From: a virus
Reading direction: 5' to 3' (one strand)
IMG/VR virus record: IMGVR_UViG_3300043185_000079
Length of the DNA: 64,000 bases
How positions within the stretch are numbered: the first letter of the stretch is position 1; each line of letters starts with the position of its first letter. Below are positions 8,718 through 51,592 of the stretch, piece after piece. Below the pieces are notes generated by a model that was given only the letters and a program-made list of their open reading frames with translations, did not search any database and was not told where the DNA came from. The translations under genes and the position numbers were made by a program.

Positions 8718-8770
8718 CACTAGAACCCGTGATGCGCACGCTCCGTCAACGCGCGGGGTCCAGGTAACCC

Positions 8771-10372: not shown

Positions 10373-10380
10373 GACACACC

Positions 10381-10956: not shown

Positions 10957-10985
10957 GGCGCGAAACCCGCCCGGCCCCCTTTCGG

Positions 10986-11000
10986 CGGTGTTTTCGCTAT
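10986..11000 (+). promoter_or_regulatory. CGGT-N8-TAT motif
   Basis: CGGTGTTTTCGCTAT, 24 nt before GTG 11024. Confidence 0.55.
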
Positions 11001-11023
11001 AGGAGGCGGCTGACAAGAACCCC

Positions 11024-11887
11024 GTGTCCTCGCCTGATCCAAAGCGCGTTGCCGAAGCCCATCTTCTCAAGAGGGTCGCGGGCGAGGTCATCTTCAAGAA
11101 AGACCGCGGCGGTGATGTCTCGCAGTGGGCGTACGCCGACCACCATCCGTCAAAACGAGACATTCCTGGCGACTTCAACTACTCGCCATCGCACCAGAAG
11201 CCTCTCGCGAAGGTTCTGCGGTCAACCCTGGCCGCTCTCGGTCATGTGCTCTCCGCCCACAACTCTTTCGCTAAGGTCAAGTCAGCCAGGGTCTCCCCCG
11301 ACGGAAGTCTCGGGGGGCGCGGCTACATCATGAAGATCCACGACATGCGCAAGCAGTACATGAACTGCGTCGAGGCGCTGTCGGCTCTCAGCGACACACT
11401 CTACGACGAGGTCAACGCGCCACACTGGTCTCTCCTGTCGCGTCAAGAGGACACGGTCGACAAGGACACGGTGTCCGCGCTCATTCAGGACTCGGAGAAG
11501 ATCAGGGAGGACCCGCAGGAGTGGGCGGAAGACCAGATCGAGGACGAGTTTGAAGATGACGAGGATGAGAGCAACGAAGAGTTCGACCTTGAGGATGCGG
11601 CGGGACAGGAACTGGATATCGTTGATGACAGCGAGGATGGGTGGACTGTAGACGAGGACGTGGACGAAGAGAACCCGCTGCTTCTCGGTGTGATGGGGAA
11701 GACGGCGAGCGCCCGAGACGTCCGACTCGCACTCCTGCCCCAACGCGTTGCGTTGGACTGGATCGTGGCCCACGAGAACCAGATCCCTGGAGGGGTTTCC
11801 GACAAGAGGCTTCCGACTGACTTCGACCACTTGGTCGAGGACAATCACTACGACAAGCTCGAGACGATCGAGGGAGAGCACACCTGA
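11024..11887 (+). CDS. putative internal head protein with RVA motifs
   Basis: PKRVAEAHLLKRVA at N-terminus; acidic tract; GKTAS and PQRVALDW near C-terminus. Confidence 0.6.
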   Translation: MSSPDPKRVAEAHLLKRVAGEVIFKKDRGGDVSQWAYADHHPSKRDIPGDFNYSPSHQKPLAKVLRSTLAALGHVLSAHNSFAKVKSARVSPDGSLGGRGYIMKIHDMRKQYMNCVEALSALSDTLYDEVNAPHWSLLSRQEDTVDKDTVSALIQDSEKIREDPQEWAEDQIEDEFEDDEDESNEEFDLEDAAGQELDIVDDSEDGWTVDEDVDEENPLLLGVMGKTASARDVRLALLPQRVALDWIVAHENQIPGGVSDKRLPTDFDHLVEDNHYDKLETIEGEHT

Positions 11888-16023: not shown

Positions 16024-17916
16024 GTGGCCAAGGCGGCTGCCAACTTGGCCAGGATGGCCCTCAACGCGGGCCGCCTCCCTGAAGACGCCGGTCGACGCGA
16101 TGTTGTAGACAGCATCACCTTCGTCGAGTCCGAGTGGGGCCTGGGGATGCGGCTCTACCCGGTCCAGAGGGTCATCCTCAAGGCCCATTACGGGATTCCC
16201 CTGGACGATGACCCGGCGAACGCGTTCACGATCACGGACTGGCGCCGACAGAATCCCAAGGACTTCACCGAGGCCGGGTATCTCCGCTATCTGTACGAAC
16301 AGGGCCGGTCCAACATCCGTGAGGTCGTGCCGGGTGTCGAGAGACGTCAGCTCGTGCTTTCCATCGGCCGGCGATCTGGAAAAACCCTGATCGCGTCCTG
16401 CATTTCGGCCTACGAGACGTACAAGCTGATCAACCTTGGCAATCCACAGCGATATTTCGGTCTGAGCCCGTCATCGAACATTCAGCTCATCTCGATCGCC
16501 ACCGGCAAGGACCAGGCGGGACTGCTCTACTCCGAGGTGTCCGGACACTTCTCCAAGTGCAACTTCTTCCGGCGTTACACGGCGAACCATACGATGAGCT
16601 ATGCGCGCTTTCAGACCCCGCGCGACATCGAGGAGTTCGGGTCGTACGATGAGAATCCCAAGGCTCGGGCCAGTCTCAAGGTCACGTTCCACGCCTGCAA
16701 CGCCAAGGGGCTCCGCGGCGCCGGCAACATCGTCGTCATCCTCGACGAGGTTGCACACTTCGTCGAGCAGGGCGGATCCTCGGCCGAAGAGGTCTATCAG
16801 GCGGTGCACGCGTCGACCGGCACGTTCACGCCGAAGGACGACCTCGGTGAGCCGATCGACGGCGCGATGACAGAGTCCGAGGGACGGATGATTCTCATCT
16901 CGTCTCCACTGGGTAAGCAGGGACTGTTCTACAAGAAATTCCAGCAGGGGATGAGTGGCGGAGAATCGGCCGGGCACATGCTGTGCATCCAGGCTCCGAC
17001 ATGGGAAGTCAACCCGACAGTCTCCGCGAGCGTGTTCAAGGACGCCTACGCCGAGGACCCGAGGATCTTCTTCACGGAGTGGGGCGGGGAGTTCACGGAC
17101 CGTACTCTCGGATGGCTGGAGAACCCTGAGGATCTCCTCGCGTGCATTGACAAGGAACTACGCCCACGGACGCGCGGGCAACCACGACGCCAGTACTTCG
17201 TAGGCTTCGACCTCGGGCTCGTCAACGACGCGAGCGCGATCGCAATCACCCACATCGACGAGAACAACAGGATTGTTCTCGACTTCATCGGTCAGATGAT
17301 GGCGGGTGAAGGAGAGTACGCGGACAAGGAGCGACTGGAGTTCGATGATGTGGCGGCGTGGATCTACGGCCTATCGCGTCGGTTCCACTTCCACTCGGGA
17401 CTCTTTGACCAGTGGGGAGCGATCCCACTGGAACAGGCGCTCGCCAAGAAAGGCTTGACGCAGATCGAGGGAAAGTTGTTCTCGCCGCAGGAGAAGTCGC
17501 AGATTTGGCAGAACTTCAAGTCCATGATCTGGGACAAACGTCTCGTCCTCTTCGACATCACACCGGAAGAGAGGCAGAAGTATCTGTCCCGGGAGGAGAT
17601 TCCGCCGGACCACCTCGCGTACATCCAGCAGATGCTCGAGCTGCAGGCGACGTACAAGAGTCGGTACGTCGTCGAGGTCGAAGCGCCGCAGACGGATGGC
17701 AAGCACGACGACTTGGCGGACGCGCTCTCCAGGTCGGTATGGCTCGCGAGTCAGCAGATTGGGAAGCTCAAACACATCGCTCGCAGCGGCCTCAACACTC
17801 CAGCACACGTCGTGCGACCCCAGGTTTCGGCCGCGATTCGCCGGGCCAATCGCAGGCAGTCCCTCCTTGGAGGGTCCGATCCCAAGCGGCAGATCCAGAA
17901 ACGGAGGCGATGGTAG
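16024..17916 (+). CDS. terL: terminase large subunit
   Basis: Walker A GRRSGKT, Walker B VVILDE, ISSP coupling motif, nuclease GFDLG..ND and KHDDLADA. Confidence 0.92.
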   Translation: MAKAAANLARMALNAGRLPEDAGRRDVVDSITFVESEWGLGMRLYPVQRVILKAHYGIPLDDDPANAFTITDWRRQNPKDFTEAGYLRYLYEQGRSNIREVVPGVERRQLVLSIGRRSGKTLIASCISAYETYKLINLGNPQRYFGLSPSSNIQLISIATGKDQAGLLYSEVSGHFSKCNFFRRYTANHTMSYARFQTPRDIEEFGSYDENPKARASLKVTFHACNAKGLRGAGNIVVILDEVAHFVEQGGSSAEEVYQAVHASTGTFTPKDDLGEPIDGAMTESEGRMILISSPLGKQGLFYKKFQQGMSGGESAGHMLCIQAPTWEVNPTVSASVFKDAYAEDPRIFFTEWGGEFTDRTLGWLENPEDLLACIDKELRPRTRGQPRRQYFVGFDLGLVNDASAIAITHIDENNRIVLDFIGQMMAGEGEYADKERLEFDDVAAWIYGLSRRFHFHSGLFDQWGAIPLEQALAKKGLTQIEGKLFSPQEKSQIWQNFKSMIWDKRLVLFDITPEERQKYLSREEIPPDHLAYIQQMLELQATYKSRYVVEVEAPQTDGKHDDLADALSRSVWLASQQIGKLKHIARSGLNTPAHVVRPQVSAAIRRANRRQSLLGGSDPKRQIQKRRRW

Positions 17917-18728: not shown

Positions 18729-20672
18729 ATGCCGGCTGAGGGCACGAAGAACGCCATCGCTGGGTCGGCAAGCCCCTCGTCTCTCAAGAAGAACGACGAC
18801 GAGGTCGTGGTGGGCACGGTCGAGCAGCGAAGAGGACGGCCCGAACGCGTGGGCGTGGACACCATGAGAACGGCATCGGCCGGGAACGCTCAGGTGGCCG
18901 AGGATAGTCGTCGAGGGGTTCAAGTTGGAAAACCTTCCCGTGTTGTCACGGGAACCATGCGTGGCCGGGCTGGTCCTCCCAGCTTCCGTGACAAGGTAGC
19001 GGCGGCATGTGGCCCTGGATCGGGGAGTTTCGGTGGCCTTGGCGGCGCTGGGGGCGTTGTCGGCGGGGGAGGAGGGAGCGGCGGGGGAGGAGGGTTCTCT
19101 GGCAACTTCGGACCGGGCAGTGTCGCGCAGGCCAGTTCGGGCAACTTCTACAGTCCCGAACTCAGCACGGACTTCCTGGAGCTTCCACAGTCTCTCAACG
19201 AACAGTGGAACTACTACAGGTTTTTCTACAACAACGAGCCGTTCGTCGGACAGGCTATCGATCTACACACGGAGCTGCCGCTGTCGAAGGTCCGGCTGGC
19301 TCGCCCGAGGGCTCAGACCCGCGAACTCGCCGATCAGGCTCTCCGGTTTTGCGAGAAGTGGATCAACCGGATCGGACTCCTGCAGCGGCTTATTGAGATT
19401 GTTCACGAGTACTACCTGATCGGCGAGGTGTTCATCTTCTGCGAGGACGCGAACCCGGACATGCCGCAGGAGGTCCGACAGAAGGTGGTGCGCGAGGTCA
19501 AGCCCGACGGCTCCCTGGTCGAGACATGGGTGGACTACGATGACGCCGACGCGCGAGCGGTGCGGTGGATGAAGAAGAACTACAGGGGCTGGACGGCCAT
19601 CCGCGTGCTGCCACCAGAGCAAGTCCACATCGAGACATTCCCCTTCACGAGCCAGGCTCTCATCGAGCTAATTCCTGACGCCAAGACGAGGCATGTCATT
19701 AACATGGCGGACCAGGGCGACGAAAGGGCCTGGCGCATTGTCGAATCCATGGACTCCGCCGTCGTGGATGCCGTGCGCGGTGGCGCGAACATCCCCCTGA
19801 GCACCGATCCGGACGGGGGCTCTTTTGTCCACTACATGGCGAACAAGAAGTCCCAGTATGAGCCCAGGGGCCACAGTATCCTGCAGCGATGTTTGAGGGT
19901 CTTGGTATTTTCTGACAAACTGAGACAGGCTCAGACTCAAATTGCTTCGCGGCACATGACCCCGATCCGTCTCGTCTACGCTGAGGACATGGACGAGACG
20001 GACACGGAGGCGCTGCGCGACCAGATTGATCTCGCCTTGCAGGACCCCGACTACTCGATCGTGACCAACTTCCAGGTCACGTGGGAGGAGATGAACAGTA
20101 ACGGCCGTTTGCTTGAGCTGTCCTCAGAGTACGACCTCATCAACCGCCAGCTCTACGCGGGTCTCGGCGTCACCGAGGCGCTCCTCAACGGCGAGTCGAG
20201 CTATTCCGGCGACCGCATCAACCTGGAAGTCATCAACACGAGGTACATGCTCCTCCGCGAGAACATCCAGAACCTCGTGGAGGAGAACTTCTTCAAGCCC
20301 ATGTGTCGACGCATGGGGTTCGTCGAGGAGGATGAGGACGGCAACCTGGAAGTCATCTACCCTCGCCTGTCCTTCACGCGGCTCGCTCTCCGGGACAACC
20401 AGGACACCTTCGACGCGCTGTTCCAGCTCTACCAGAAGGGCTCGCTGGACGTGGAGACCATCCTGGATCTACTGAACATCGACCCCGTGACCGTGCGCGA
20501 GCGCCTGGAGCGGGATTTTGCGACGTATAACGACGCGAACTTCAACGAGGTTCTTCGGTCGATGTACGGACGAGTCGGTGACCAGATCGTGGAGGGGTCG
20601 GACCTGGTGGAGAGGATCGCCAAGACCCTCGGGCTCGAGTACAAGAAGCCCGAGCAGGCTGGCCGTTTCTAG
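18729..20672 (+). CDS. portal protein with Gly-rich N-terminal extension
   Basis: FYNNEPFVGQAIDLHTELP, PRGHSILQRCL, GLGVTEALLNGE, PRLSF portal-like segments; downstream of TerL. Confidence 0.8.
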   Translation: MPAEGTKNAIAGSASPSSLKKNDDEVVVGTVEQRRGRPERVGVDTMRTASAGNAQVAEDSRRGVQVGKPSRVVTGTMRGRAGPPSFRDKVAAACGPGSGSFGGLGGAGGVVGGGGGSGGGGGFSGNFGPGSVAQASSGNFYSPELSTDFLELPQSLNEQWNYYRFFYNNEPFVGQAIDLHTELPLSKVRLARPRAQTRELADQALRFCEKWINRIGLLQRLIEIVHEYYLIGEVFIFCEDANPDMPQEVRQKVVREVKPDGSLVETWVDYDDADARAVRWMKKNYRGWTAIRVLPPEQVHIETFPFTSQALIELIPDAKTRHVINMADQGDERAWRIVESMDSAVVDAVRGGANIPLSTDPDGGSFVHYMANKKSQYEPRGHSILQRCLRVLVFSDKLRQAQTQIASRHMTPIRLVYAEDMDETDTEALRDQIDLALQDPDYSIVTNFQVTWEEMNSNGRLLELSSEYDLINRQLYAGLGVTEALLNGESSYSGDRINLEVINTRYMLLRENIQNLVEENFFKPMCRRMGFVEEDEDGNLEVIYPRLSFTRLALRDNQDTFDALFQLYQKGSLDVETILDLLNIDPVTVRERLERDFATYNDANFNEVLRSMYGRVGDQIVEGSDLVERIAKTLGLEYKKPEQAGRF

Positions 20673-20714: not shown

Positions 20715-22784
20715 ATGGTGCTCCCATCGATCGATCTCCCGACTCGCGAGAGTATCGGACATCCTGCGGACACCCCGGCCAGGGTCGGAATTCTCGTCCA
20801 CATGGCTCGACCCTCCAGGCGCCGCGAGTACAGCATGTCTCGGTGCATGGGGGAGGGTTGCAAGCGGTCCCCTGAGATCGAGTGCATCTGGGCCGACGGT
20901 CGTGGCCGCGCCTGGTTCTGTGAGCGACACTTCGACGCCTGGGCTGCGAAAGACACGGACGGAGGACTCCCGAAGGCTATCGTCAAGCAGCGCAGGGTTC
21001 CTGACGGTGTGGTGGGCGAAAAGTACGGCGAGTATCCCGAAGCCAAGACGGCTGCGGGGGCCCAGTTCATCGTCGTGTCCGCGAAGGGCCCTGGACAGTG
21101 GCCTACCGACCCCGTCCAAGTCATGTCCCGGGAAAGGGCCCTCGACTACCAGTCCGCGGGTGTCGTGATAGCCGGGTTTCGCACGGAGCGCGAGGCTGAG
21201 GAATTCGCAGACAAGATGCGTGACGCTGCTATCGACGTGACGGCGCCCGACGGGACGATCGTGTTCTCCGGGCGTCTCCTCGACTTCTCCGATCTGGCTC
21301 CGCGCCTCGGACTCAGGTTCGTCGACCGAGGGCGGCTTTTGCAGATCCTGCACCGTCCCACGACGGTGATCGGATCCGGCAGGCGCCAGATGACGGTCAC
21401 GCGCCGCGCGGGCAAGACCGCCAAGGCCACCGGATGCAAGACAGGCGACGGTCACAGCGTTGGGCTGTTCATCCCGCTCCCGCGAGATTTGGCCAAGAAG
21501 TTCCCTTCGCTGGGCGAGAATGACGACTCACCCTCCCATGTGACATTCCTGTACATCGGAGATTTCAAGGGAAAACGGAAGCAGGAGCGGCTCGTCGCCG
21601 TCCTACGAAGCTGCTTGCGTCGTTGGTGGCCCTCCTGTCGGGCGACACTCGGAGACTTGGCCTACTTCGATCACCACGACAAGGATCGCCGCGTGCCTCA
21701 CGTCCAGGTCGACTTCGACAAGGACATGAGTGGATTCAAGCACCGGCTGCGACAGGAACTTCACGAGGCCGGCATTGATGTTGGCGACACGTTCCCCGAG
21801 TACAAGCCCCACGTCACACTCGCTTACATGCCGGGCATGGATAGCGAGTGGGAAGGCCCTGTTCCGAAGGGGTCGTGGGACTTCGACACAGTCGAGATCT
21901 GGGGACTTCCGGAGGTCCACAAGATCAAGCTGGGGCCGTCGATTCACAAGATCTCGGAGGAGTGGGTTCTCCAAGTGATTGCTCGTCGTGTCGCGATGAA
22001 GCATTATGCTGCCGGTTGGCCGGACCGCGGCAGAGTAGCATCGGTATCCGTGAACGCGACGCACAGGCGCAACGTCACCCTCGTCAAGTGGCTATCCGAC
22101 TTGGCGCAACATCTCGGCGTCGCAAGGGACACGTACGTCGTGGGTGGGGCCGTGCGAAATTTCATCCTCGGCGAGCCCATCAAGGACGTGGATGTCGTCA
22201 TCGACACCATCAAGGCCGGCAGGGATTCTGAATGGCTGGCGCAGCAGGTGGCCAAGGCGATCCCGGTCCCGACCAACGTGACAACGAACCAGTACGGAGT
22301 GGCCATTCTCACCGTCAAGGGCGACTGGGTCCTCGACGACGAGAACCTCCGCGGCGAGATCATCGAAATCGCCAACGCGCGCAAGGAGAGCTACGGAGGC
22401 GAGACGGGCAAGGGTTATAAGCCGCACATGGTAGAGCCCGCCACCATCGAGGAGGACCTCAGGCGAAGGGATTTCACGGTTAATACGCTGATGTGGAGGT
22501 TGCTCGACTTGGCACACGGACCCGACCGGGCCGAGGTCGTCGATCTGATGGGATGTGGTCGGCGAGATCTTGAGCAGCGAATACTTCGATGCCCGCAGGA
22601 TCCAGATATCACTTTTTCGGATGATCCGACAAGGATGCTACGTCTGGTGCGGTTCATGTCCAGATACAACATGAAAGTATCTCCCGACGTAGCGGCAGCA
22701 GTGCGTCGCAACGCGCCCAAGCTCAAGAATGCTCCTTGGGAGGCCATCGCTTCGGTCCTGATGCAGACTCTGGAGGGACGGTAG
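20715..22784 (+). CDS. polyprotein: Cys/His module + 2H phosphoesterase + CCA-adding/poly(A) polymerase head
   Basis: Two HxT motifs (SHVTF, PHVTL); YVVGGAVR..KDVD, RRRDFTVN and FSDDPTRMLR; domains separated by KTA/RVA motifs. Confidence 0.85.
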   Translation: MVLPSIDLPTRESIGHPADTPARVGILVHMARPSRRREYSMSRCMGEGCKRSPEIECIWADGRGRAWFCERHFDAWAAKDTDGGLPKAIVKQRRVPDGVVGEKYGEYPEAKTAAGAQFIVVSAKGPGQWPTDPVQVMSRERALDYQSAGVVIAGFRTEREAEEFADKMRDAAIDVTAPDGTIVFSGRLLDFSDLAPRLGLRFVDRGRLLQILHRPTTVIGSGRRQMTVTRRAGKTAKATGCKTGDGHSVGLFIPLPRDLAKKFPSLGENDDSPSHVTFLYIGDFKGKRKQERLVAVLRSCLRRWWPSCRATLGDLAYFDHHDKDRRVPHVQVDFDKDMSGFKHRLRQELHEAGIDVGDTFPEYKPHVTLAYMPGMDSEWEGPVPKGSWDFDTVEIWGLPEVHKIKLGPSIHKISEEWVLQVIARRVAMKHYAAGWPDRGRVASVSVNATHRRNVTLVKWLSDLAQHLGVARDTYVVGGAVRNFILGEPIKDVDVVIDTIKAGRDSEWLAQQVAKAIPVPTNVTTNQYGVAILTVKGDWVLDDENLRGEIIEIANARKESYGGETGKGYKPHMVEPATIEEDLRRRDFTVNTLMWRLLDLAHGPDRAEVVDLMGCGRRDLEQRILRCPQDPDITFSDDPTRMLRLVRFMSRYNMKVSPDVAAAVRRNAPKLKNAPWEAIASVLMQTLEGR

Positions 22785-22835
22785 GCGTGGCGGGCAATTT
22801 CGCGAGATTCAATGAGATGTTCGGCTGCAGAGTCT

Positions 22836-23276
22836 ATGGCTGACCCAAGGAAAGCACTCAAGGAGATGAAGGCACTGGGTCTGCTGGACGTGGTGTCTGA
22901 GATGATCCGGGAACAGAAGCCGTTCGCTACCTACATGGCCAACCAGCTCAGAGCCGACAGGCGCGTCCAGCTCCTTCTCGACATGATGGACCTTGGCGTC
23001 CCGGCCAGTATGCCCCTGTCCTTCCTCGACGCGGCCGGACGACAGCGCCTGCGCGAGCTGACCGTATCGATGTCTGAGGACGAGGCGTCGAGGCTCGTCG
23101 ATCTCCTGATTAAGCCGCCCGTGGACAGCATGCGCGTCATCACAGAGCTTGCCCTGGAGGGGCCGGCGCGGGCCGGGATCCTGCCCGCAGCCAGGCAGCT
23201 GATTCTCGCGCACCCGTGGCTGGCTAACGATTCCCGCCGGCTGACGGAGGAGGTGATCCGGCAGTGGACCAAATGA
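22836..23276 (+). CDS. C-terminal body of the CCA-adding enzyme, in frame after a TAG
   Basis: DPRKALKEMKALGLLD continues the tRNA nucleotidyltransferase fold; same frame as 20715..22784. Confidence 0.65.
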   Translation: MADPRKALKEMKALGLLDVVSEMIREQKPFATYMANQLRADRRVQLLLDMMDLGVPASMPLSFLDAAGRQRLRELTVSMSEDEASRLVDLLIKPPVDSMRVITELALEGPARAGILPAARQLILAHPWLANDSRRLTEEVIRQWTK

Positions 23277-23425
23277 TCACCCGTGTCGCCGCCCGACATG
23301 CCGTGCTCCGTTCGGCAACGGGTTACTTCCGCGAGGGCGAGGACATCCTGTTCGATCGCTACAACAAGGCCGGAAGAGGAACCGGACGATGGGCCTCTTC
23401 AACATCTGGAAGTTGTCTGAGGTGA
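23273..23425 (+). CDS. 50-aa leader ORF (MITRVAARHAVLRSATGYF...), possibly a frameshifted N-terminus of the 1678-aa polyprotein
   Basis: ATGA coupling; begins with the RVAARH motif then RSA; overlaps the next ORF in the -1 frame. Confidence 0.5.
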   Translation: MITRVAARHAVLRSATGYFREGEDILFDRYNKAGRGTGRWASSTSGSCLR

Positions 23426-26400
23426 GAGGCCTGCCTCCAAAAACCGGACGTGGAGTCGCGTTTCATGGTACGCGGTCGAAGAATCTCGATCACCTGCGGC
23501 GTTATGGGCTCGTGCCTGGAGCACGCAGTGCGTACACGGACGCCTATAGTAAGTACGACGACGGGCGTCATCTGTTCTTCACAGACAATGAGGACTTGGC
23601 GCGCCATTACGGAGACCTGATTCTGCGATTCCCTTGGCCAAGCGAAGCCAAGCCTGATGTTAACGAATTCGGACGCTATCTTCCTGGACAGTTCGTCTCC
23701 TTGCGGAAAATCCCGCCAGACGAGATCGATGTTTTGCGTGAGGGTACTTGGGAACCTCTCGTTGGAGGCTTGTCGAAGCAGGCCTGCATCATCGTCGGCA
23801 AGGACTTCGACGGCCACCTCTGTCTCCTCAAGAACCGGGATCGGTCGTACGACGTCAAGCTCCAGATCATGCACATGGAGTTCAACGGCGTCGAGATGGC
23901 GTTCGTACTCGATCTCGAGACCGGCTACCTGGAAGGGGTCAACGAGCACGGGATCGGCGTTGTCAACACGACGCTCATGGTGCTTCATGATGAGGCAGAA
24001 GGGCACTCGACCAAAACCAAGGGCAAGACGACGCTCAAGTCGAAGGATGGCCCGAAGATCTTCCACGCCCTCATACAGGACAATCTCCAAGACGCGGTCG
24101 ATGTTCTCGTGAGTTTCCGGGGAGGGATCCGCGGCCACACGTTCGTGGCCGACGGACAGACGCTGCTCAGTATTGAGTGCACTCGAAAGAACCCGGCCCG
24201 GGTACATCATCTCGATCCGGGGAGGGTCAACACGAGGACCAACCATGGCGTCTCATATCCCGAGGCTGGGTACACGCGCGGCGAGGACTATGTCTCGTCC
24301 ATCGTCCGTCGATGGGAGGCGCAGAAGCGGATTCAAGGGGTGAAGCGGCCAGAGGCCGCTGCTCCGGCCCTCGCAACGCTGATCGACGAGGCCGACAGCC
24401 CGTTCAATCCTGTCCGAGTGACTGACAAGATGCGGACGACGAGCCAGCTCCTCATCGATACGAGCACTCCGTCTCTCTACCTCTACCTTATTCCAGGTCA
24501 CGCGCGCGTCACCAAGATTCTCAATCTCCTTCCCGGAGGCAGAGCACCGAAGATTCCCGTCCGGGTGTTTCGCTACCGCAAGCGGATGGAAGACCGAGAC
24601 TTTGAGGACGACGGCCATGAGATGAAGGATGAAGTGGCAGATCCAGGAGGTGACTTGCTGGAGAAACGAACTGCTCGCTATAAGGACAAGAAGACGGTCA
24701 AGACCAAAGACGGCGACGAGCGAGTCATCTACGAGTACGGCCCGCGACAGGTCCTCAACCGCAACAAGGCCAAGGCGGAGCGTATCGAGAATCTGCGCAA
24801 GCAGATGTCGGCTCTCCGTCGGAAGGTCAAGAAGGACCTGGAGTCGTCCGACGACCAGAAACGCGCTGTTGCTCTCGCCGTCGCGCTGATGGACGAAACC
24901 TATGAGCGGCCCGGCAACGAAGCCAGTGCCAGCGAGGGTCACTACGGCGTGACGACGTGGCAGAACCGGCACGTCAAGTTCCGCAACGGAAAGGCCACGA
25001 TCACATACGTCGGGAAGTCTGGAGTCGAGCACAAGAAGGTCGTCGAGACACCGGCAGTCGTGAAGGCTCTCAAGATGCTCTGCAAGGGCCGAGGGAAGGA
25101 TGATCGCCTCATCGACGTCGAGGCGGCTGACGTCAACGAGTTCCTACGCTCGTTCGAGATTACGGCCAAGGACATCCGAGGGTTCCACGCGAACCGCGAG
25201 ATGAAGGACCGTCTCAAGAGGATCCGCCGTGAGGGGCCGGATCTCCCGCGGCCCCTCAAAGATCGAGACAAGATCCTGAAAGAGGAGTTCAAGCAGGCGC
25301 TGGCCGAAACCGCTGAGGCCGTAGGCCATACCGAATCCACGCTGCGCAGCCAGTACCTCGTCCCCGGGCTCGAGGACGAGTACATGAAGGACGGCACCGT
25401 CAGCGACAGCCACGTGAAGTCCGGGGGGGCGGCCCTTCTAGGCGCTCCTGGGGTCCAGGAGCGCCCAGAAGGCGCGCTGAGGGTCGCCGCCACCCGAGGC
25501 ACACCGACGGAGCGGAGGATCCTGGCGAACGCCCTGCTTGCCCCGGTGCTCGTAGTGCGCGATCGCCGCTGGTGGCTCGACGAGGCGCCGTCCCTCTACC
25601 GCCTGGCCCGTGACCACGAGCGGCCTAGACCTGTCATCGACGGTCTCCGGTTCGACCCCGACCTGTTCGCGATGCTCTGGTACGAGGACGAGGACGGGAA
25701 CAGGTTGCCCGAACCGCCCATTGGGGACCTCGCAATTCCGGAGGACTCCCATACACAGCATTCGAGGTTCCCCAACGTGCTGCGGCACACCATCCTGTTG
25801 CTTAATGACGACGGGACGTCGTCGAGCCTCGCGGCTGGGGAAAGTTCCTTTCCCTCTGATCTCGTGACGCAGATGGTTCGCAGCGGCGACTGGGACACCG
25901 CAGACGCAATCATGGTTGCCGGCCAGGCCTGCGAGCGATGCCTCAACGTCCTGCTCCACCATTACGGGATCGGGGATGGCTACCCGTTCGGGTCCGAGGA
26001 CTATTGGCGGGCGAACACAGTCTGTTCGATGTGCGAGGACATCGGCCGTCGAATGGCGACGAAGTCTCCCGCCGAGAAGGAGGATGAGAACGTCGAGAAG
26101 ATGCTACGGCCGGAACCGAAGAAGAAGCCTCCGCGCTACGACCTCCGCAACAACAGAACGCTGGAGGACCGGGACGAGGACCTGGAGGGTATGGGCGCAG
26201 GAGATCGTGGGGATCGAGACTTGAGTCTCAAGTGGAACAAGGTCGCTCATCGGGTGGCGTTCCGGTGGCTGGCCGTTCCCCTCGCGCCCGCTCCTCTGCG
26301 TGTGGCAATGCGGCGCATCGCCAGGCAGTTCCCCTCCGAGTTCCAGGACGAGGTGGCACACCAGCGGTTCACGCATCCAGAGACGCGCAACTCAGTCGGG

Positions 26401-28425
26401 TTTGGGTCGTTGCCTAGCGAGGAGCAGTCGAAGATCTACAAGCGGTGGAAAAGCAAGGCGCGGGAAGACAAGGCTCCACCAGAGGATGCCGAGAAATCCG
26501 AGAAAGGCAAGGAGGATGACGTCGAGCGTGAACTCGACGAGGCACGCGATCGGGTCGATTCTCTGGAGGATAAGGTTGATAAGGCCAAGGACCAGATCAA
26601 GGAATCGCGCGAAAACATCAAGGGGATCAAGAATCTGCTAGAGAAGGCTGGCGAGACGGCCCGAGGACAGCTCGAAGGAAAGCTGCGCGAGGAGGTCTCC
26701 AAGATGCGGAAGGCCGAGGACGCGCTGGAGGAAGTCACCGACGAATTGGAGGCGGCGCGCAAGCGTGTCGATCAGCTCAAGGCGGAGCGTAAGGCTCCCA
26801 CGAGCCGCGAAGACAAACGACGCGAGGATGAAGAGAAGCGCCGCAAGGAACGTGCCGAGGAGACTCTGGACGAGGTGCGCGATGCGGTGCGGGGGATGGT
26901 GTCGAAGGACTCCGACATCCCCGAGGACGTTCGGGCACAGATTGAGACCGCCTTCGCCAACTTGAGCGAGGAGCAAGTAGAGGATTTTTCCGAGGCATTC
27001 CAGAAGTCGTTGGGGAAGCTCGTCAGAACGGACGCTTCGTCCGAGGAGGCTGCGAACCTGGCCAACGCCTCGGTCCGCGCCGATCTGAGTGAGATTGAGG
27101 ATCCCGCAGAGCTGGCACGCACAGTTGCCGAAGTCGCGTACGCACGCAACGTGGTGACCAATCCTCTCGTCGTGGGTGGGAAGCCGCTCGGACAGACGAA
27201 GATGGACGATGCTGGCTACTCCGGTCGTGCTATGGAATCGTTCCGTCAGTTTCAGCGTCTCAGCCCTGCTCTCCGCGAGAGTGCGGCGGAAAAGATCGCG
27301 GAAGAGCTTCGCGGTCTCGACGAGGACTCCGATAAGGCACAAGAGCTACAGGCGATTCTCACAGGCATCAACACGGCTCATATCGCGGACACAGGCCACG
27401 CTTTGCCGGGTCGACCGCAGCCGAACAAAGGTGCCGCGGCTCTCATCCGTCGCATGGTGGAGAACGGTCAAGCCGAGACGATGTTCAAGCCGGTCGAGGA
27501 CTTCTTCGCCGACGACAGCCGCGCCGCGATGCAAAAGGCGCTCTCGGAAATGGACGACGCGGAGGTTGCTGACTTCGTGATCGGAGACGACGGGGATCAC
27601 CCATTCGGTAAGCTCCGCGAGGCCATGCAGGAGAAGGGCGCCAGTGAGTACAAGCAGCTCATCAAGGACTTCCTGATCCAAGATTTCATGAGTGACATCT
27701 GGGGTGATCGGGCCGTACGCGATTACATGGAGTCCGCTGGTTTCGCCGACTTCGATAATCCGGAGGCCAGGGCGCAGTTGCTTCGGGACACGAGGTACGC
27801 AACTGCACCCGAGGCAGACATGCAGGCGATCGCCAGGGCGCAGGCGGCGATCGCGGCCGGTCAGAAACCTGATCCAGAGGATGAGGAGCGTGCTCGAAAT
27901 TTCCTCGATCCAGAGACGGGGGGCGGGATCCGTGGGAAACTCCGCAAGCTCATGGAGATCTTGCAATCCAAGGTCAAGAAGCGTGTTGTCACCCCCGCGA
28001 CCGCGGTGATCAACCACTTCCTGGAGACGGGCGAGGCCGAGGTCCTCCACCAGGAGACCCTTCCACATCCTGACGAGGGCCGGGGCGGGGACACGGAGGC
28101 CAAGGAAGACGAGGGACACGGGTTGGGCGACGTGTGGAAAACTGACGAGGGGAACTGGCGCGCCAAGAATCTCGACGGAGTGCCCAAGACTTTCGATACG
28201 CGAGAGAAGGCCCAAGCATACGCCAAGGGCGGCAAGGACCGCAGGAAGCCATCGCGCGGCAGCGAGGCCCCTGGCGAGGAATTCTCGGCCGAGTTCACCG
28301 TGCCCGTCGAAGAACGAGGACCGACGAGGTTTGCCAACCATGTCGCGAACGCTTGGCTGGCCCAAGTGCGCAAATGCCACCCAGACGATCCGGGGCGTCC
28401 GCGAGTGGTTTTTGATACGGCTTGA
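23389..28425 (+). CDS. 1678-aa multi-enzyme polyprotein (ART-fold, Ntn-hydrolase, topoisomerase IB, Zn module, coiled coil)
   Basis: FHGT..GL..FFT..A..Y..IPPDEI; CIIV..KNRD..GVNEHG..TNH; RPGN..GKSG..KDIR..GHT..SQY. Confidence 0.85.
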   Translation: MGLFNIWKLSEVRGLPPKTGRGVAFHGTRSKNLDHLRRYGLVPGARSAYTDAYSKYDDGRHLFFTDNEDLARHYGDLILRFPWPSEAKPDVNEFGRYLPGQFVSLRKIPPDEIDVLREGTWEPLVGGLSKQACIIVGKDFDGHLCLLKNRDRSYDVKLQIMHMEFNGVEMAFVLDLETGYLEGVNEHGIGVVNTTLMVLHDEAEGHSTKTKGKTTLKSKDGPKIFHALIQDNLQDAVDVLVSFRGGIRGHTFVADGQTLLSIECTRKNPARVHHLDPGRVNTRTNHGVSYPEAGYTRGEDYVSSIVRRWEAQKRIQGVKRPEAAAPALATLIDEADSPFNPVRVTDKMRTTSQLLIDTSTPSLYLYLIPGHARVTKILNLLPGGRAPKIPVRVFRYRKRMEDRDFEDDGHEMKDEVADPGGDLLEKRTARYKDKKTVKTKDGDERVIYEYGPRQVLNRNKAKAERIENLRKQMSALRRKVKKDLESSDDQKRAVALAVALMDETYERPGNEASASEGHYGVTTWQNRHVKFRNGKATITYVGKSGVEHKKVVETPAVVKALKMLCKGRGKDDRLIDVEAADVNEFLRSFEITAKDIRGFHANREMKDRLKRIRREGPDLPRPLKDRDKILKEEFKQALAETAEAVGHTESTLRSQYLVPGLEDEYMKDGTVSDSHVKSGGAALLGAPGVQERPEGALRVAATRGTPTERRILANALLAPVLVVRDRRWWLDEAPSLYRLARDHERPRPVIDGLRFDPDLFAMLWYEDEDGNRLPEPPIGDLAIPEDSHTQHSRFPNVLRHTILLLNDDGTSSSLAAGESSFPSDLVTQMVRSGDWDTADAIMVAGQACERCLNVLLHHYGIGDGYPFGSEDYWRANTVCSMCEDIGRRMATKSPAEKEDENVEKMLRPEPKKKPPRYDLRNNRTLEDRDEDLEGMGAGDRGDRDLSLKWNKVAHRVAFRWLAVPLAPAPLRVAMRRIARQFPSEFQDEVAHQRFTHPETRNSVGFGSLPSEEQSKIYKRWKSKAREDKAPPEDAEKSEKGKEDDVERELDEARDRVDSLEDKVDKAKDQIKESRENIKGIKNLLEKAGETARGQLEGKLREEVSKMRKAEDALEEVTDELEAARKRVDQLKAERKAPTSREDKRREDEEKRRKERAEETLDEVRDAVRGMVSKDSDIPEDVRAQIETAFANLSEEQVEDFSEAFQKSLGKLVRTDASSEEAANLANASVRADLSEIEDPAELARTVAEVAYARNVVTNPLVVGGKPLGQTKMDDAGYSGRAMESFRQFQRLSPALRESAAEKIAEELRGLDEDSDKAQELQAILTGINTAHIADTGHALPGRPQPNKGAAALIRRMVENGQAETMFKPVEDFFADDSRAAMQKALSEMDDAEVADFVIGDDGDHPFGKLREAMQEKGASEYKQLIKDFLIQDFMSDIWGDRAVRDYMESAGFADFDNPEARAQLLRDTRYATAPEADMQAIARAQAAIAAGQKPDPEDEERARNFLDPETGGGIRGKLRKLMEILQSKVKKRVVTPATAVINHFLETGEAEVLHQETLPHPDEGRGGDTEAKEDEGHGLGDVWKTDEGNWRAKNLDGVPKTFDTREKAQAYAKGGKDRRKPSRGSEAPGEEFSAEFTVPVEERGPTRFANHVANAWLAQVRKCHPDDPGRPRVVFDTA
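23785..24600 (+). other. Ntn-hydrolase domain (C45/C59-like) starting at Cys133
   Basis: KQA|CIIVG..KNRD, EGVNEHGIGVVN, RTNHG. Confidence 0.7.
24676..25420 (+). other. type IB DNA topoisomerase domain
   Basis: Catalytic pentad R (RPGN), K (GKSG), R (KDIR), H (GHT), Y (SQY) is intact. Confidence 0.85.
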
Positions 28426-29274: not shown

Positions 29275-29904
29275 ATGAAACGTACAGCAGACGCAGGAAA
29301 CTGGCAGGCCCGCGGACAAGAGTTCGCGGTGGGGCAAGCTGTGCGTCTCGTCAATGGCAGCCCAACCGACGAGGGTCGCGTCACCGCTGTCTGGCCTGGA
29401 ATCGGATGCGTCGATGTGCAGTGGCCACACACGTCGTATCGCCACTTGGTTGAGGATCTCCAGATTGTCAACCCGGGCGAGGACGAGTTCGTCGCGCCCA
29501 TGCACGAGGACGTGCCGGGAGGGCCCCCGTCCTCGGCGTGGGTCTCGCAAGGGGCCCCTCAGACGAACGAGATCACGCACGAGGACCCACGAGTCGAGTT
29601 CGTCCACGACATCGCGGGCAAAGTGGCATCTCAACCGTCTGCGCAGCGGGTGGCGATCGCGTTCGTGAAGCATTCTCTTTACTGGCACGCTCGGGACCGG
29701 AAGTACCGCGTCAGCCGGGACGAACACGCAGAGGGCCGGTATAGATGCCCCACCCGTGGGTGCGAACAGATGTTGCGCCGTGCAACCTACAAGATGGAGA
29801 ACGGATCTCCGATCAAGCTGCTCGCCTGCGGCTCGTGCTTGTTCATGATCCGCGAGCATGACGTACTCTCTGACCACTGCACTCCACATGAGGAGACCTG
29901 CTAG
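29275..29904 (+). CDS. hypothetical protein with RVA motif and C-terminal zinc ribbon
   Basis: MKRTA; GKVASQPSAQRVAIAF; CPTRGC..CGSC. Confidence 0.65.
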   Translation: MKRTADAGNWQARGQEFAVGQAVRLVNGSPTDEGRVTAVWPGIGCVDVQWPHTSYRHLVEDLQIVNPGEDEFVAPMHEDVPGGPPSSAWVSQGAPQTNEITHEDPRVEFVHDIAGKVASQPSAQRVAIAFVKHSLYWHARDRKYRVSRDEHAEGRYRCPTRGCEQMLRRATYKMENGSPIKLLACGSCLFMIREHDVLSDHCTPHEETC

Positions 29905-29905
29905 C

Positions 29906-32884: not shown

Positions 32885-32931
32885 ACGGAATACCCACCCA
32901 AGCACGTCAAGGACTCAAAGGAGAACTCATC

Positions 32932-34365
32932 ATGTCGTCACGCACGCGACTCACCTGGACCAAGGGAGGCACACAGAAGAAGGCTTCGCCCCCACCGCAA
33001 ATGCCCGCTGTCGATCGTACGGAGGGGCCCGATCATCCGGCCTATTACCCCGATCCCGAGGCGGACCAGTACGAGAAGGGGGACACCTCTGCATGGGCCG
33101 AGGACCCGCACATTCCGACGGACCCTGAAAGTCCGCCGCCCGCGATGCCCGGCAACCTCACCACCGAGCCGTTGGATCACCCGGCGACATCGGATTTTCA
33201 GAAGAAGCCTGAGAGTCCCGCGGCCGCGGCCGGTGGCGGGGCGGGCAAGGCTGCTGCCTCGCGGATGACCCTCAGAGAACAGGCTGAGCAACGTGCCACG
33301 CTGTGTGTCCGCATCGCCAGCGCTATGCTGAAGAACGCCTCCGTGCGCGAGATCGAGGACAAGGCATTCCAGCTGATGGATCTCGATGACGCGCAACTCC
33401 GCGCGACCCTCGCCACACTCAAGTTGGTCGCTGGCGAGGAAGGAGACAAGGAATTCGAGGAGGGCGAGGAGTCCGAAGGCACCAAGGACTCCGACGAAGG
33501 CAAGACGGCCACCCTCGATGTCACCGCTCGTGTCGATCGACTGGAGCAGTCGGTCGGTCGTCTCATCCAGGCCATGAGCCACTTCTTTGGCATGGATGAC
33601 GAGCCCCAGGAGACAACAGCGGGAGAGGACATGAGCGACGACGACCTCATGGCCTACCTCATGGCCGAGGACACGGACGGCGACGGCATCGACCAGTCAC
33701 AGAACGACTTCCCGCAAGGCTACGACATCGACAAGCTCTCCCAGGGCGACGAGGAGGAGATGCTCCGCGCCATGCTCGAGGAGATGGAAGTCGAGGAAAA
33801 GATGGCGAGTCACGCCGAAGATGTCGTCGATCCCCTCGCCAAGGGCCCCTCCATCCAGAGCGGTGAGGGCGGCAATGTCGATCCCGCGCCGGAACCCGAG
33901 ACCCCGCAGGTCGCGGGTCCGCAGACGGGCGGCACCGCCGTCACGGCCACCGAACAGGCCAACCCCGCCGACAACGACATCGAGATCACCGCAGGCGCCG
34001 ATCCGATGGGTCTCATGGAGACCGAGAAGGAAGCCAGCGACGATCTGATGGCCCTCTACGCCGACATCGATCTGCCCAAGACGGCCGGTGAAGAAGACGA
34101 GGAGGAAGACGAGGAGGAAGACGAGGAGGAGGAAGAAGACGAGGAGGAAGTCGAGGAGGAGGACAAGGCGGCCGCGAAGAAGAATGCGGCAGCGAAAAAG
34201 GACGAGCCCAAGCTGCGTCCGCAGCCCAAGGCTGCCTCCAAGGGCCCCAAGACCCTCGGCAACGTCCCGCAGACCAAGACTGCCAGCAGCGAGATCGCGG
34301 AACTCCAGAAGCTCTGGGAAACCGCACCCGACGTCTCCGAGTACTTCGGAGTTCCACGGAGCTGA
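32932..34365 (+). CDS. acidic capsid scaffold protein
   Basis: AAGGAG RBS; very acidic and low-complexity; lies between protease and capsid genes; many K-x-A sites. Confidence 0.65.
   Translation: MSSRTRLTWTKGGTQKKASPPPQMPAVDRTEGPDHPAYYPDPEADQYEKGDTSAWAEDPHIPTDPESPPPAMPGNLTTEPLDHPATSDFQKKPESPAAAAGGGAGKAAASRMTLREQAEQRATLCVRIASAMLKNASVREIEDKAFQLMDLDDAQLRATLATLKLVAGEEGDKEFEEGEESEGTKDSDEGKTATLDVTARVDRLEQSVGRLIQAMSHFFGMDDEPQETTAGEDMSDDDLMAYLMAEDTDGDGIDQSQNDFPQGYDIDKLSQGDEEEMLRAMLEEMEVEEKMASHAEDVVDPLAKGPSIQSGEGGNVDPAPEPETPQVAGPQTGGTAVTATEQANPADNDIEITAGADPMGLMETEKEASDDLMALYADIDLPKTAGEEDEEEDEEEDEEEEEDEEEVEEEDKAAAKKNAAAKKDEPKLRPQPKAASKGPKTLGNVPQTKTASSEIAELQKLWETAPDVSEYFGVPRS
34093..34164 (+). repeat. 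GAAGACGAGGAG tandem repeat (poly-E/D tract)
   Basis: Three exact 12-bp units followed by degenerate copies. Confidence 0.8.
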
Positions 34366-49980: not shown

Positions 49981-50205
49981 ATGTCCGGAACAAGGAAAGT
50001 ACGACTCACGCCACGCGAGGACGAGCTGTTCGCCATCGCTTGGTATCTCATTCAGGCCCAGAACGGCTCCGAGAAGGACCGTCACATTCAGTGGGCGCGC
50101 TACCACCTGTGGCGCGTTACGCAGGGACTCTTCGTTCATCAAGATCTGGTGGGCAACATCCACCATGTTTTCTGCGAGGCGTTCGGGGAGGGCTGTGATG
50201 ACTAG
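49981..50205 (+). CDS. hypothetical protein
   Basis: GGAG RBS; overlaps the rtcB start. Confidence 0.45.
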   Translation: MSGTRKVRLTPREDELFAIAWYLIQAQNGSEKDRHIQWARYHLWRVTQGLFVHQDLVGNIHHVFCEAFGEGCDD

Positions 50206-51592
50206 CCTTGACCGCATCGCCCGCGCGCTCCGACGTGACGGCGTCGAGATCGAGATGGATGGATCAATCTACAGGATCCGGCGAGCAGGGCACGAGGGTC
50301 CGTTCGCCGAGGTCCTGCTCCCTAAGGGCTTCCCGCTCGAGACCAAGGCCGTCGTGCAGCTCGCGGCATTCGCTTCCGCGCGCCATCCAAATGGGGGTCA
50401 CGTGTGCCATGCCTGTGCCACGCCCGACTTCCACCCTGGCAACGGTGTGCCTGTCGGGTCCGTCGTGGCCACCTCGCTCGACTTGGCCATCCCCTCTGCC
50501 ATAGGGACAGACATTAACTGCGGGATGCGGATGCACGCGACGGGACTTTCCGTGGATCGGTTCCTCGCGGAGAAGCGCCGTCTCGTGGACGTGCTGCGCG
50601 GAGACCTGCTCCTCGGTACGCGCGACTTGCCCATGACCGGCGTCTCCATGCGCGCCATGTTCGACGGAGGTGAACCCGATTGGCTGGACGCCGTGCTGGA
50701 CCGTCCCCTCGGAATGCTGGCCCGTTCCGACCTCGGCCAGATCGGGAGAGAGATCGGAAACGGCTATCGAGGCCGGTGGAGCTGGGCCCCCGAGGGACTC
50801 GTCGACGATGGCAGAGAAATCGTGCGCGACGGAGCGCTTGGCACGGTGGGTGGAGGGAACCACTTCGTGGAATTCCAGGTGGTCGATGATGTCGCGGACG
50901 GCGGTCTCGCCCGCGCATGGGGCCTGAAGAACGGCGAAGTGGTCTTTATGGTTCACACCGGATCTCGGACCGTCGGGAAAGCAGTCGGGACTCGGTGGTC
51001 CGAGATCGCGCGGGAGCACTGGCCGTCAACGGTAAGACGACCAGACGTCCTCCCTCTGTACGGGGCTGACGTCGACGGGTACGTCGAGGCCATGAATACC
51101 GCTGCGAACTACGGCGCGGTCAACCGACTCCTGATCGCCGAGATCGTCCGTCTACGGCTGCGGGAGATTCACGGGGACATAGGGGTTACCCTCGTGCACG
51201 ATGCTCCCCACAATCTCGTCTTCCGCGAGGGAGACATGCTCGTCCATCGGAAGGGAGCTACTCCCGCTCACGCCGGACAACCCGTGCTGATCCCTGGATC
51301 CATGGGGCAGCCCTCGTACGTTCTTGTCGGTCGCGGCAACGGGCGATACCTCTCTTCCGCGTCCCACGGGGCTGGTCGCGCGGTCACTCGCTTCGAGATG
51401 GGACGGCGCCAGAGAGCCGGAGACGATCTGGGTCTCGATGGGGTTGATTGCGTGACATTGAGAGAGGAACGGAGGATCGAAGAGGCTCCCTCGGCCTACA
51501 AGGACATTGGGCCCGTCGTTTCGGTGCAGGTCGAGCACGGCCTCGTCGCTCCTGTGGTTCGGACACGGCCGCTGGTGACATTCAAAGCCTAG
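50198..51592 (+). CDS. rtcB: RtcB RNA ligase
   Basis: PDFHPG, DINCG, GGGNHFVE, HTGSR, HRKGAT, PGSMG, SHGAGR, EEAPSAYK. Confidence 0.95.
   Translation: MTSLDRIARALRRDGVEIEMDGSIYRIRRAGHEGPFAEVLLPKGFPLETKAVVQLAAFASARHPNGGHVCHACATPDFHPGNGVPVGSVVATSLDLAIPSAIGTDINCGMRMHATGLSVDRFLAEKRRLVDVLRGDLLLGTRDLPMTGVSMRAMFDGGEPDWLDAVLDRPLGMLARSDLGQIGREIGNGYRGRWSWAPEGLVDDGREIVRDGALGTVGGGNHFVEFQVVDDVADGGLARAWGLKNGEVVFMVHTGSRTVGKAVGTRWSEIAREHWPSTVRRPDVLPLYGADVDGYVEAMNTAANYGAVNRLLIAEIVRLRLREIHGDIGVTLVHDAPHNLVFREGDMLVHRKGATPAHAGQPVLIPGSMGQPSYVLVGRGNGRYLSSASHGAGRAVTRFEMGRRQRAGDDLGLDGVDCVTLREERRIEEAPSAYKDIGPVVSVQVEHGLVAPVVRTRPLVTFKA

Follow-up and report, generated by a model that had tools for sequence, protein, structure and literature searches.

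Two bacterial immune nucleases that remove the CCA tail of tRNA have just been described: LbaCas13a, whose HEPN RNase cuts at A|CCA with a chemistry that yields cyclic phosphates (bioRxiv 10.64898/2025.12.03.690598), and Cas12a3, which strips tRNA tails (PMC12851939). The authors of the Cas12a3 study remarked that phage tRNAs are unable to evade the nuclease and asked for 'yet unknown means of resistance' (PMC12851939). In bacteria, the E. coli Cca enzyme has an HD domain credited with acting both as a 2',3'-cyclic phosphodiesterase and as a phosphatase (Yakunin 2004, as cited in PMC5283653). In phages, Iyer, Burroughs, Anand, de Souza and Aravind (2017) list the 2H phosphoesterase as a component of polyvalent proteins, fused to MuF or portal; a CCA-type nucleotidyltransferase is never mentioned there, and the 2H versions are stated never to have been seen with RNA ligases (PMC5512222). 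In a jumbo-phage survey, CCA enzymes and 2H domains appear as separate entries. Here we describe a 64,000-nucleotide (nt) stretch of IMG/VR virus record IMGVR_UViG_3300043185_000079 (the window), in which the gene directly after the portal gene joins a 2H phosphoesterase to part of a class II nucleotidyltransferase. We see about an even chance that this gene and the short open reading frame (ORF) behind it encode a two-piece tRNA 3'-end heal-and-retail enzyme within a polyvalent protein of the head module.

In the mechanism we propose, the 2H domain would open the 2',3'-cyclic phosphate left by metal-independent RNases on a tRNA whose CCA tail has been removed, and the class II nucleotidyltransferase would next restore the tail. 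The transferase would combine a head and partial neck, carried on the 2H polypeptide, with the remaining neck and body from a 146-amino-acid (aa) ORF, and the product may be carried in the capsid and injected along with the DNA. The domains, the catalytic motifs, the fold neighbours, the split with its origin, the gene order and the selection on both pieces are seen in the data; what we infer is which substrates are used, that the remaining phosphate is removed, that the two pieces join and that the protein is packaged.

A 2H phosphoesterase joined to a nucleotidyltransferase head

From N to C terminus, the multidomain protein consists of a leader, a Zn-ribbon module, a small alpha/beta module, the 2H phosphoesterase, and the nucleotidyltransferase head with a partial neck (residues are numbered as in P0001, counted from the codon at 20703; coordinates are collected in Table 1). 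A reading of the locus made earlier from sequence alone had placed the start at 20715. This ATG is a good start and we accept it, because a GGGAGA Shine-Dalgarno sequence lies 5 nt before it and the N-terminus that it gives (MVLPSIDLP) resembles those of relatives (VPSLIPDNF, VPLRIDPSP). The public gene call begins later, at 20847 (P0003, 645 aa).

Both of the HxT motifs named in the sequence-only reading are there, as SHVTFLY (H279, T281) and PHVTLAY (H370, T372), and about 40 relatives keep both histidines and both threonines. Pfam places residues 275-377 in 2_5_RNA_ligase2 (PF13563; E 4.8e-7, 30.4 bits against a cut-off of 27). We modelled residues 235-445 with AlphaFold on 51 aligned relatives (predicted local distance difference test score, pLDDT, 91.4). 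VIA returned 66 chains at a Z of at least 8 for this model, and all of the matches listed at that level are 2H proteins. They include the Deinococcus radiodurans cyclic phosphodiesterase 5h7e (Z 14.3, root-mean-square deviation (rmsd) 3.0, 156 residues aligned), B. subtilis YjcG (2d4g; Z 14.1), T. thermophilus 1iuh (Z 13.3), E. coli LigT/ThpR (Z 12.5), AKAP18 (Z 12.3), Usb1 (Z 12.2), rotavirus VP3 (Z 11.4), mouse hepatitis virus (MHV) ns2 (Z 10.7) and the poxvirus phosphodiesterase of cyclic GMP-AMP (cGAMP; Z 8.7). Acb1 (7t26; Z 8.7, rmsd 4.0, 126 aligned) stands at rank 40, behind the LigT-type, AKAP18, Usb1, VP3 and ns2 groups, and Foldseek ranks the 2H neighbours in the same order. Among the predicted viral structures of BFVD, the nearest are large actinophage proteins labelled capsid morphogenesis, structural protein or 'RNA ligase', with Acb1 at rank 47.

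As modelled, the fold is LigT/ThpR-like rather than Acb1-like. The comparison of Acb1 with LigT that the sequence-only reading had called for comes out on the side of the LigT/ThpR types (Z 12.5-14.3) and leaves Acb1 well behind. The Acb1 likeness it had seen in EYKPHVTLAY holds for the second His motif and ends there: the Pfam Acb1 family (PF23474) matches only residues 354-378, around that motif, with E 0.0089 and 16.2 bits against a cut-off of 27. Nor does the domain follow ThpR in every respect. The extended ThpR motifs are HxTxxF and HxTxxR, and Arg130 of the second is essential in that enzyme (Remus, Jacewicz and Shuman 2014, PMC4201822). Throughout the present family the first motif (HVTFLY) keeps an aromatic residue five positions after the His, and the second (HVTLAY) has Tyr at the position of the ThpR Arg; by this motif criterion the domain, LigT-like in fold, is not a member of the ThpR subfamily. 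The 2H domain matched a single record among GenBank phages, KX853510.1 (Virus Rctr197k_173), at 30% identity. The gene concerned (L045, 3787-9906) lies in a structural gene cluster and encodes a hypothetical protein of 2039 aa, in which InPase, DUF5661 and DUF7178 are accompanied by a 2H domain at the C terminus.

The class II nucleotidyltransferase predicted from sequence is likewise borne out. Its head matches Pfam PolyA_pol (PF01743) over residues 477-629 (E 1.8e-18, 67.5 bits against a cut-off of 23), and residues 476-683 match a PHROG tRNA nucleotidyltransferase family (E 1.9e-35), the match covering only positions 4-177 of a 392-position profile. The motifs VVGGAVRN...KDVDVV (with D495 and D497), RRRDFTVN, DLMGCGRRDL and SDDPTRMLR are all present. 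In CCA enzymes motif B is RRD and motif D is EDxxR; motif B is found here as RRRDFTVN, and motif D reads DDPTR, with Asp for Glu throughout the family and with the Asp and Arg retained. In the PDB, the best sequence matches range from the Aquifex A-adding enzyme (4wby, 2.2e-16) through E. coli poly(A) polymerase (6e-15) to the CCA-adding enzymes 6ibp and 1miv (about 1e-14). The neck and body, which hold the tRNA in class II enzymes, are present too, though on the second ORF (22836-23276); in unbroken relatives they are continuous with the head.

A tRNA nucleotidyltransferase gene in two pieces

The sequence-only reading treated 20715-23276 as one fused ORF and overlooked the split of the CCA enzyme into two genes. 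A TAG at 22782-22784 ends the first ORF; the same frame stays open beyond it, and 22836-23276 is a separate ORF of 146 aa. In the closest relative (P0004; 1006 aa, 82% identical) all of this is one continuous protein, corresponding to the window protein, six residues, and then the downstream ORF, and the tail ORF is 82% identical to its C-terminal 141 residues (866-1006). At the break point the unbroken relatives read PWEAVxxILVNDILTQPTARRSLxQMxxLGLL (also given as ILVNDILTQPTARRSL), and the window reads PWEAIASVLMQTLEGR followed by the stop and resumes at MADPRKALKEMKALGLL. The break lies within the neck domain, because solved CCA enzymes align across it in the unbroken P0014 (to residue 227 of 1miv and residue 258 of 6ibp) and a weak PolyA_pol_RNAbd match of P0004 crosses it as well.

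The same break is found elsewhere in the family. P0010 (854 aa, on 230-kb and 63-kb IMG/VR contigs) has the same end as the window protein, LMQTLEGR before the stop. On its contig L005 the stop codon is TAA, and the homologue of the tail lies about 820 nt beyond it. In the gap lies a 292-aa ORF (10517-11395) that pairs a DNA-binding N-terminal part with an endonuclease domain of the DUF559/Vsr-like kind (Pfam DUF559, 23.6 bits with a cut-off of 20.6, and PHROG endonuclease families), and the stop of this ORF overlaps the start of the tail ORF (ATGGGTGA). Aligned as DNA, the window and L005 have both junctions in common, GGAGGGnnGGTAnnCGTGGC upstream and ATGGnTGAyCC downstream, with only 51 nt between them in the window. 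Stand-alone tail proteins of exactly 146 aa make up three clusters from more than 10 contigs. When the two split alleles (window and L005) are compared, the tail has a ratio of nonsynonymous to synonymous substitution (dN/dS) of 0.21, the 2H domain one of 0.195 and the head one of 0.088; both pieces are under purifying selection.

Genes left in pieces by free-standing homing endonucleases are known, for example the split nrdA of phage Aeh1. We conclude that the nucleotidyltransferase is such a gene, made by a free-standing homing endonuclease no longer present in the window genome. The case is read as a split gene, and neither as a pseudogene nor as a bypass, because a free-standing endonuclease gene fills this break in a 230-kb relative and both pieces show purifying selection. 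A pseudogene created by nonsense mutation or assembly error might be suspected from a TAG inside a conserved domain and from the lack of a strong Shine-Dalgarno sequence before ATG 22836. It is extremely unlikely, given that other lineages and many contigs share both the stop position and the 146-aa ORF after it, that there are no further stops or frameshifts, that the tail has a low dN/dS between split alleles, and that an endonuclease gene accounts for the break.

Other explanations of the junction were rejected. The TAG is an ordinary stop here, because the portal gene ends with TAG; against recoding or read-through there are also the nearby long ORFs, which are uninterrupted, and the TAA of L005 at that place. 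Translational bypass or a structured element at the spacer fails on three counts: the spacer region (96 nt) shows no structure beyond that of shuffled sequence (z +1.49), L005 does not keep the repeated CGG, and the gap in L005 is about 800 nt long. A group I intron in the L005 insert was discarded, an Rfam search of the insert having given no match at E up to 1.

The window genome is rich in mobile elements: its prohead protease gene is interrupted by an intein, and a pair of LAGLIDADG genes follows the major head gene. The nucleotidyltransferase gene itself is host to a second type of mobile element in a relative: in L001 (IMGVR_UViG_3300037470_000856, 7251-11357) the 1368-aa homologue has a LAGLIDADG intein inside its PolyA_pol head (Intein_splicing, residues 674-1124).

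Relatives, head-module setting and competing functions

The database contains more than 1000 matching proteins; of the best 120, about half combine 2H with PF01743. When the 2H domain was searched alone, PF01743 was the commonest known partner (20 of 48 proteins), the others having Fic, superoxide dismutase (SOD), topoisomerase IB or no known partner. In relatives the 2H and CCA domains stand in either order and are also found with HAD_SAK_1, DUF5661, InPase, RNA ligase (PF09414) or HD domains. HAD_SAK_1 lies beside the same CCA module in P0032 and P0055, P0050 is among the relatives with a SAK phosphatase and/or ligase, and P0049, P0123 and P0256 have topoisomerase IB fused to the same 2H and CCA modules. 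Pfam found no HAD_SAK, PTP-SAK or RNA ligase domain in the window protein. The fusion of 2H and CCA domains was found in none of the isolated phages in GenBank, where there was no near-identical DNA either and where, by protein, only the CCA part matches (30-38% identity).

The window also encodes an RtcB RNA ligase. We rejected RtcB as a constant partner, for four related contigs, of which two are 90% or more complete, have no counterpart of it. About 800 nt after the RtcB gene, an ORF of 286 aa (52400-53260, + strand) has weak, sub-threshold matches to cysteine-phosphatase P-loops (DSPc E 9e-4; PTP-SAK E 0.16) and may encode an RNA-end phosphatase that would supply the missing step. For the N-terminal ART-fold domain of the giant neighbouring protein, a Tpt1/KptA-like identity was considered and dropped, with no Pfam match even at E up to 1.

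The place next to the portal, also given in the sequence-only reading, is confirmed by the portal gene directly upstream and recurs among relatives. Four related contigs (L001, L003, L005 and L006; 55 to 497 kb) have the order terminase, portal, homologous gene, giant ORF, with the homologue directly after the portal gene in each. In the window the multidomain gene is followed by the gene of the giant multi-enzyme protein and then by those for the prohead protease, a scaffold-like protein and the major head protein. Because its gene sits between the portal gene and these others, the protein is probably made together with the head proteins. It is plausible, from the synteny of the head module and the fusions of relatives to an S78 prohead protease, that it travels in the capsid and is delivered along with the DNA. 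At least two effector-type domains thus share one polypeptide among the virion genes of a portal-terminase phage, as in polyvalent proteins. The portal ORFs of L005 (4510-7959) and L006 (2407-5874) are themselves about 1150 aa long, with a portal match only at about 890-1045 and an N-terminal extension or insert of about 850 aa.

Two modules make up the N-terminal third of the protein. The Zn-ribbon module (residues 49-119, about 70 aa) contains a conserved VKQRRVPDGVVGEKYGEYP stretch after the Zn ligands and is mobile, being N-terminal, internal or C-terminal in proteins of 79 to 2792 aa (136 representatives). The second module (121-238) is common to about 10 representatives. The partners of these modules include 2H with a Dam methyltransferase and an S78 prohead protease (P0136), 2H with topoisomerase IB (P0123), and ART-PolyVal (P0127). 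A model of the N-terminal 190 residues is confident (pLDDT 91 overall, 84-95 in the Zn-ribbon module and about 95 in the second module); the ESM Atlas offered no usable lead for this region.

K-T-A sequences mark both module boundaries (AKTAAG and GKTAKATG) and are conserved in relatives, which have xAKATGxKTGDG before the 2H domain. K[TS]A occurs three times in the acidic scaffold-like ORF and 13 times in 19,142 residues, 6 of the 13 in head-module proteins. As a statistically enriched protease site this is not upheld, the count being suggestive only; the junctions may be sites for the head protease. Ahead of the CCA domain, the RVAS(R/K)W motifs, also considered as a cleavage site, look more like part of a linker helix. 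Many relatives (P0004, P0005, P0006, P0010, P0014) have between 2H and CCA a further domain of about 100-200 aa that starts with K(I/V)AGWWA...NGDGPAD and is cleanly missing from the window protein, where AAGW runs directly into PDRGRV.

The sequence-only reading had left two alternatives, the healing and re-tailing of tRNAs or the carriage of two independent counter-defence cargos. The former fits best: the LigT-like fold, the coupling of 2H to PF01743 in 20 of 48 proteins, the HAD_SAK_1 and RNA ligase domains of relatives and the RtcB gene of the window all point to it, E. coli Cca offers a precedent, and fitting tRNA lesions are known from LbaCas13a and Cas12a3; an anti-CBASS role (against cyclic oligonucleotide-based antiphage signalling systems, CBASS) is weakened. 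In the two-cargo version, the 2H domain would act like Acb1 and the viral 2',5'-phosphodiesterases and destroy immune nucleotide signals (cyclic oligonucleotides made by CBASS or by type III CRISPR, or 2'-5' oligoadenylates), with the nucleotidyltransferase acting separately. Such a role was proposed for the 2H domains of polyvalent proteins by Iyer et al. 2017 (PMC5512222), and it draws on the weak Pfam Acb1 match over motif 2, on two proteins of the same 2H subfamily with precomputed or weak Acb1 matches (P0033, P0031), on a fold common to Acb1 and to the viral 2',5'-phosphodiesterases VP3 and MHV ns2, and on the unrelated partners Fic, SOD and topoisomerase IB. We hold it to be improbable. 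The Acb1 score is below threshold, Acb1 and the poxvirus cGAMP phosphodiesterase fall far under the LigT-type structures, Acb1 comes only 47th in the viral structure library, and the most frequent partner is the CCA enzyme, with HAD_SAK and RNA ligase partners that indicate RNA ends.

Plain housekeeping is somewhat easier to credit, though still unlikely: CCA would be added to the phage's own tRNAs with the 2H domain as an accessory end-cleaner, and neither counter-defence nor packaging would be involved. The relatives G002 (230 kb) and G001 have 31 and 7 tRNA genes, with 21 of 38 distinct tRNAs lacking an encoded CCA, and CCA enzymes are common in tRNA-rich phages (phiEa21-4-like phages, Bacillus phage G). 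This account leaves unexplained why the gene keeps its place between the portal gene and the head cargo genes, why it shares Zn-ribbon and junction modules with polyproteins of prohead protease and topoisomerase, and why fusion to a cyclic phosphodiesterase recurs when primary tRNA 3' processing yields a 3'-OH. The stand-alone CCA enzymes of isolated phages, moreover, sit outside head modules and are distant in sequence. A shut-off of host RNA, in which a poly(A) or tailing polymerase would tag host RNAs for decay and the 2H domain would be a Usb1-like 3' exoribonuclease, is very unlikely. E. coli poly(A) polymerase scores 6e-15 against 8e-15 for CCA enzymes, Usb1 is close in structure, and a Usb1-like RNase role was raised by Iyer et al. 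2017 (PMC5512222); yet it is the tRNA A-adding enzyme and CCA enzymes that match best in sequence, the PHROG families are tRNA nucleotidyltransferases, and the domain company of relatives is of the repair type. The neck and body, the tRNA-holding part of class II enzymes, are also conserved.

Several observations weigh against tRNA 3'-end healing and re-tailing. CCA-adding, A-adding and poly(A) enzymes are indistinguishable here, as specificity is unreadable when the three kinds of match are nearly tied (about 30-fold apart in E-value at most). The product of ThpR-type enzymes is a 2'-phosphate end, and the window protein has no recognisable phosphatase: for its N-terminal 190 residues Foldseek found no known fold or phosphatase at E up to 0.001 and a wide VIA search reached Z 4.8 at best. 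In the second HxT motif, the arginine that is essential in ThpR is replaced by Tyr. Cas12a3 is not an ideal source of the matching lesion, because the discriminator base is lost together with the tail and no cyclic phosphate is left behind. The fusion may be a string of independent cargo domains, because the 2H subfamily also occurs without the nucleotidyltransferase, and plain tRNA maturation could account for the nucleotidyltransferase, because related phages have up to 31 tRNA genes, about half of them without CCA. The packaging, finally, is read from gene order and from the architectures of relatives.

We suggest, tentatively and as something possible rather than probable, that the protein is a pre-made tRNA-tail repair kit, injected against CCA-cutting immune nucleases such as LbaCas13a-type HEPN effectors, HEPN toxins and perhaps Cas12a3-type enzymes. 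A capsid-carried kit of this kind would be the viral answer sought in the Cas12a3 paper (PMC12851939), and a family so widespread in large uncultured phages offers a concrete, testable candidate for an answer to CCA-tail cutting. It would also widen the polyvalent-protein idea from counter-measures at the level of DNA or signalling to RNA repair. If the protein merely matures phage tRNAs, the finding is an ordinary one. The split gene would in itself be a natural case of a tRNA nucleotidyltransferase working, or at least maintained, as two polypeptides.

Table 1. Positions of the multidomain gene, its parts and other features in the window
Feature	Position	Strand	Remarks
Large terminase gene	16024-17916	+	Upstream of portal gene
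Portal gene	18729..20672	+	PHROG portal families, best E 3.3e-34; stop codon TAG; directly upstream of multidomain ORF
Multidomain ORF	20703/20715-22784	+	689 aa from ATG 20715; Pfam and PHROG matches
Zn-ribbon module	20847..21059	+	C48, C53, C73, H76; ends at AKTAAG junction
Second K-T-A site	21039-21059	+	End of Zn-ribbon module
Second N-terminal module	21063..21416	+	Residues 121-238; pLDDT about 95
GKTAKATG junction motif	21411..21434	+	Immediately before 2H domain
2H phosphoesterase domain	21447..21938	+	PF13563, E 4.8e-7
First HxT motif, H279-V-T281	21537-21545	+	SHVTFLY
Second HxT motif, H370-V-T372	21810-21818	+	PHVTLAY
Class II nucleotidyltransferase (CCA/poly(A) type), head and initial part of neck	22131..22781	+	PolyA_pol E 1.8e-18
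Catalytic D495, D497	22185-22193	+	GGAVRN...DVD motif
In-frame TAG	22782..22784	+	Terminates first ORF within neck domain
51-nt spacer	22785..22835	+	Site of endonuclease-gene insert of about 800 nt in relative L005
146-aa tail ORF (MADPRKAL...)	22836..23276 (ORF 22812/22836-23276)	+	Remaining neck and body of nucleotidyltransferase
Giant neighbour, 1678 aa, multidomain	23389..28425	+	Type IB topoisomerase core; Pfam Topoisom_I E 7.1e-27
Prohead-protease-like gene	29858-32884	+	PHROG head maturation protease at residues 122-228; interrupted by Hint/intein region with LAGLIDADG domain
Acidic scaffold-like ORF	32770-34365		
Major head protein gene	35244-36122		PHROG 1e-50
Two LAGLIDADG_2 endonuclease genes with helix-turn-helix	36220-37203 and 36978-38129	+	Directly after major head gene; listed ORFs overlap
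PAPS_reduct and DUF3440 protein	37847-39343	+	E 3.8e-36; late region
RtcB RNA ligase gene	50165..51592	+	Pfam RtcB E 1.2e-94; PHROG tRNA splicing ligase E 1.3e-65
Flanks of RtcB region	48265-49707 and 53354-53923	+	Endonuclease VII (E 3.3e-21), papain-like peptidase domain (E 4.4e-5), T5orf172/MUG113 (GIY-YIG-related) ORF

Comparison with described systems

The 2H domain resembles the LigT/ThpR-type enzymes (4qak/5ldm, 5h7e, 2d4g) in having both HxT motifs and in its modelled structure (Z 12.4-14.3, rmsd 2.6-3.0 over about 150 residues). It differs from them in sequence (only 14-19% identity), in lacking the ThpR arginine and in being embedded in a 689-aa phage protein. With Acb1, the anti-CBASS 2H nuclease of T4-like phages, it has the 2H superfamily and a similar second His motif (PHVTLxY-like) in common, whereas Acb1 stands alone at about 140-177 aa and the window protein is longer and fused to RNA-end enzymes.

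The protein is also like the 'Swiss Army Knife' RNA-repair proteins (HAD_SAK_1, PF10307; PTP-SAK, PF22784), in which modular RNA-end enzymes, nucleotidyltransferases and ligases are strung together, but it has no HAD, PTP or ligase domain. Its place in the head module and its Zn-ribbon and junction modules fall outside the Swiss Army Knife description, as judged by the Pfam entries only. The interrupted gene is of the split nrdA type, with an endonuclease gene between the halves of the enzyme gene in L005 and both halves conserved. It departs from that type in that the endonuclease gene is gone from the window, leaving a 51-nt spacer, and in that the enzyme is a tRNA nucleotidyltransferase.

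Like the polyvalent proteins, the window protein carries several effector-type domains on one polypeptide beside portal and terminase, and its relatives have ART-PolyVal, InPase, Fic and topoisomerase IB. Unlike the set of 2017, the relatives found here join 2H with a CCA enzyme, a HAD_SAK phosphatase and an RNA ligase, and no MuF domain is detectable. As in E. coli Cca, a class II CCA-type nucleotidyltransferase is joined to a domain that could open 2',3'-cyclic phosphates. Here, however, the putative healing domain is an N-terminal 2H and not a C-terminal, metal-dependent HD domain, there is no evident phosphomonoesterase, and the enzyme is encoded by two genes in a phage head module. On the best-supported reading, the window enzyme would be the functional counterpart of E. 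coli Cca, with 2H in place of HD.

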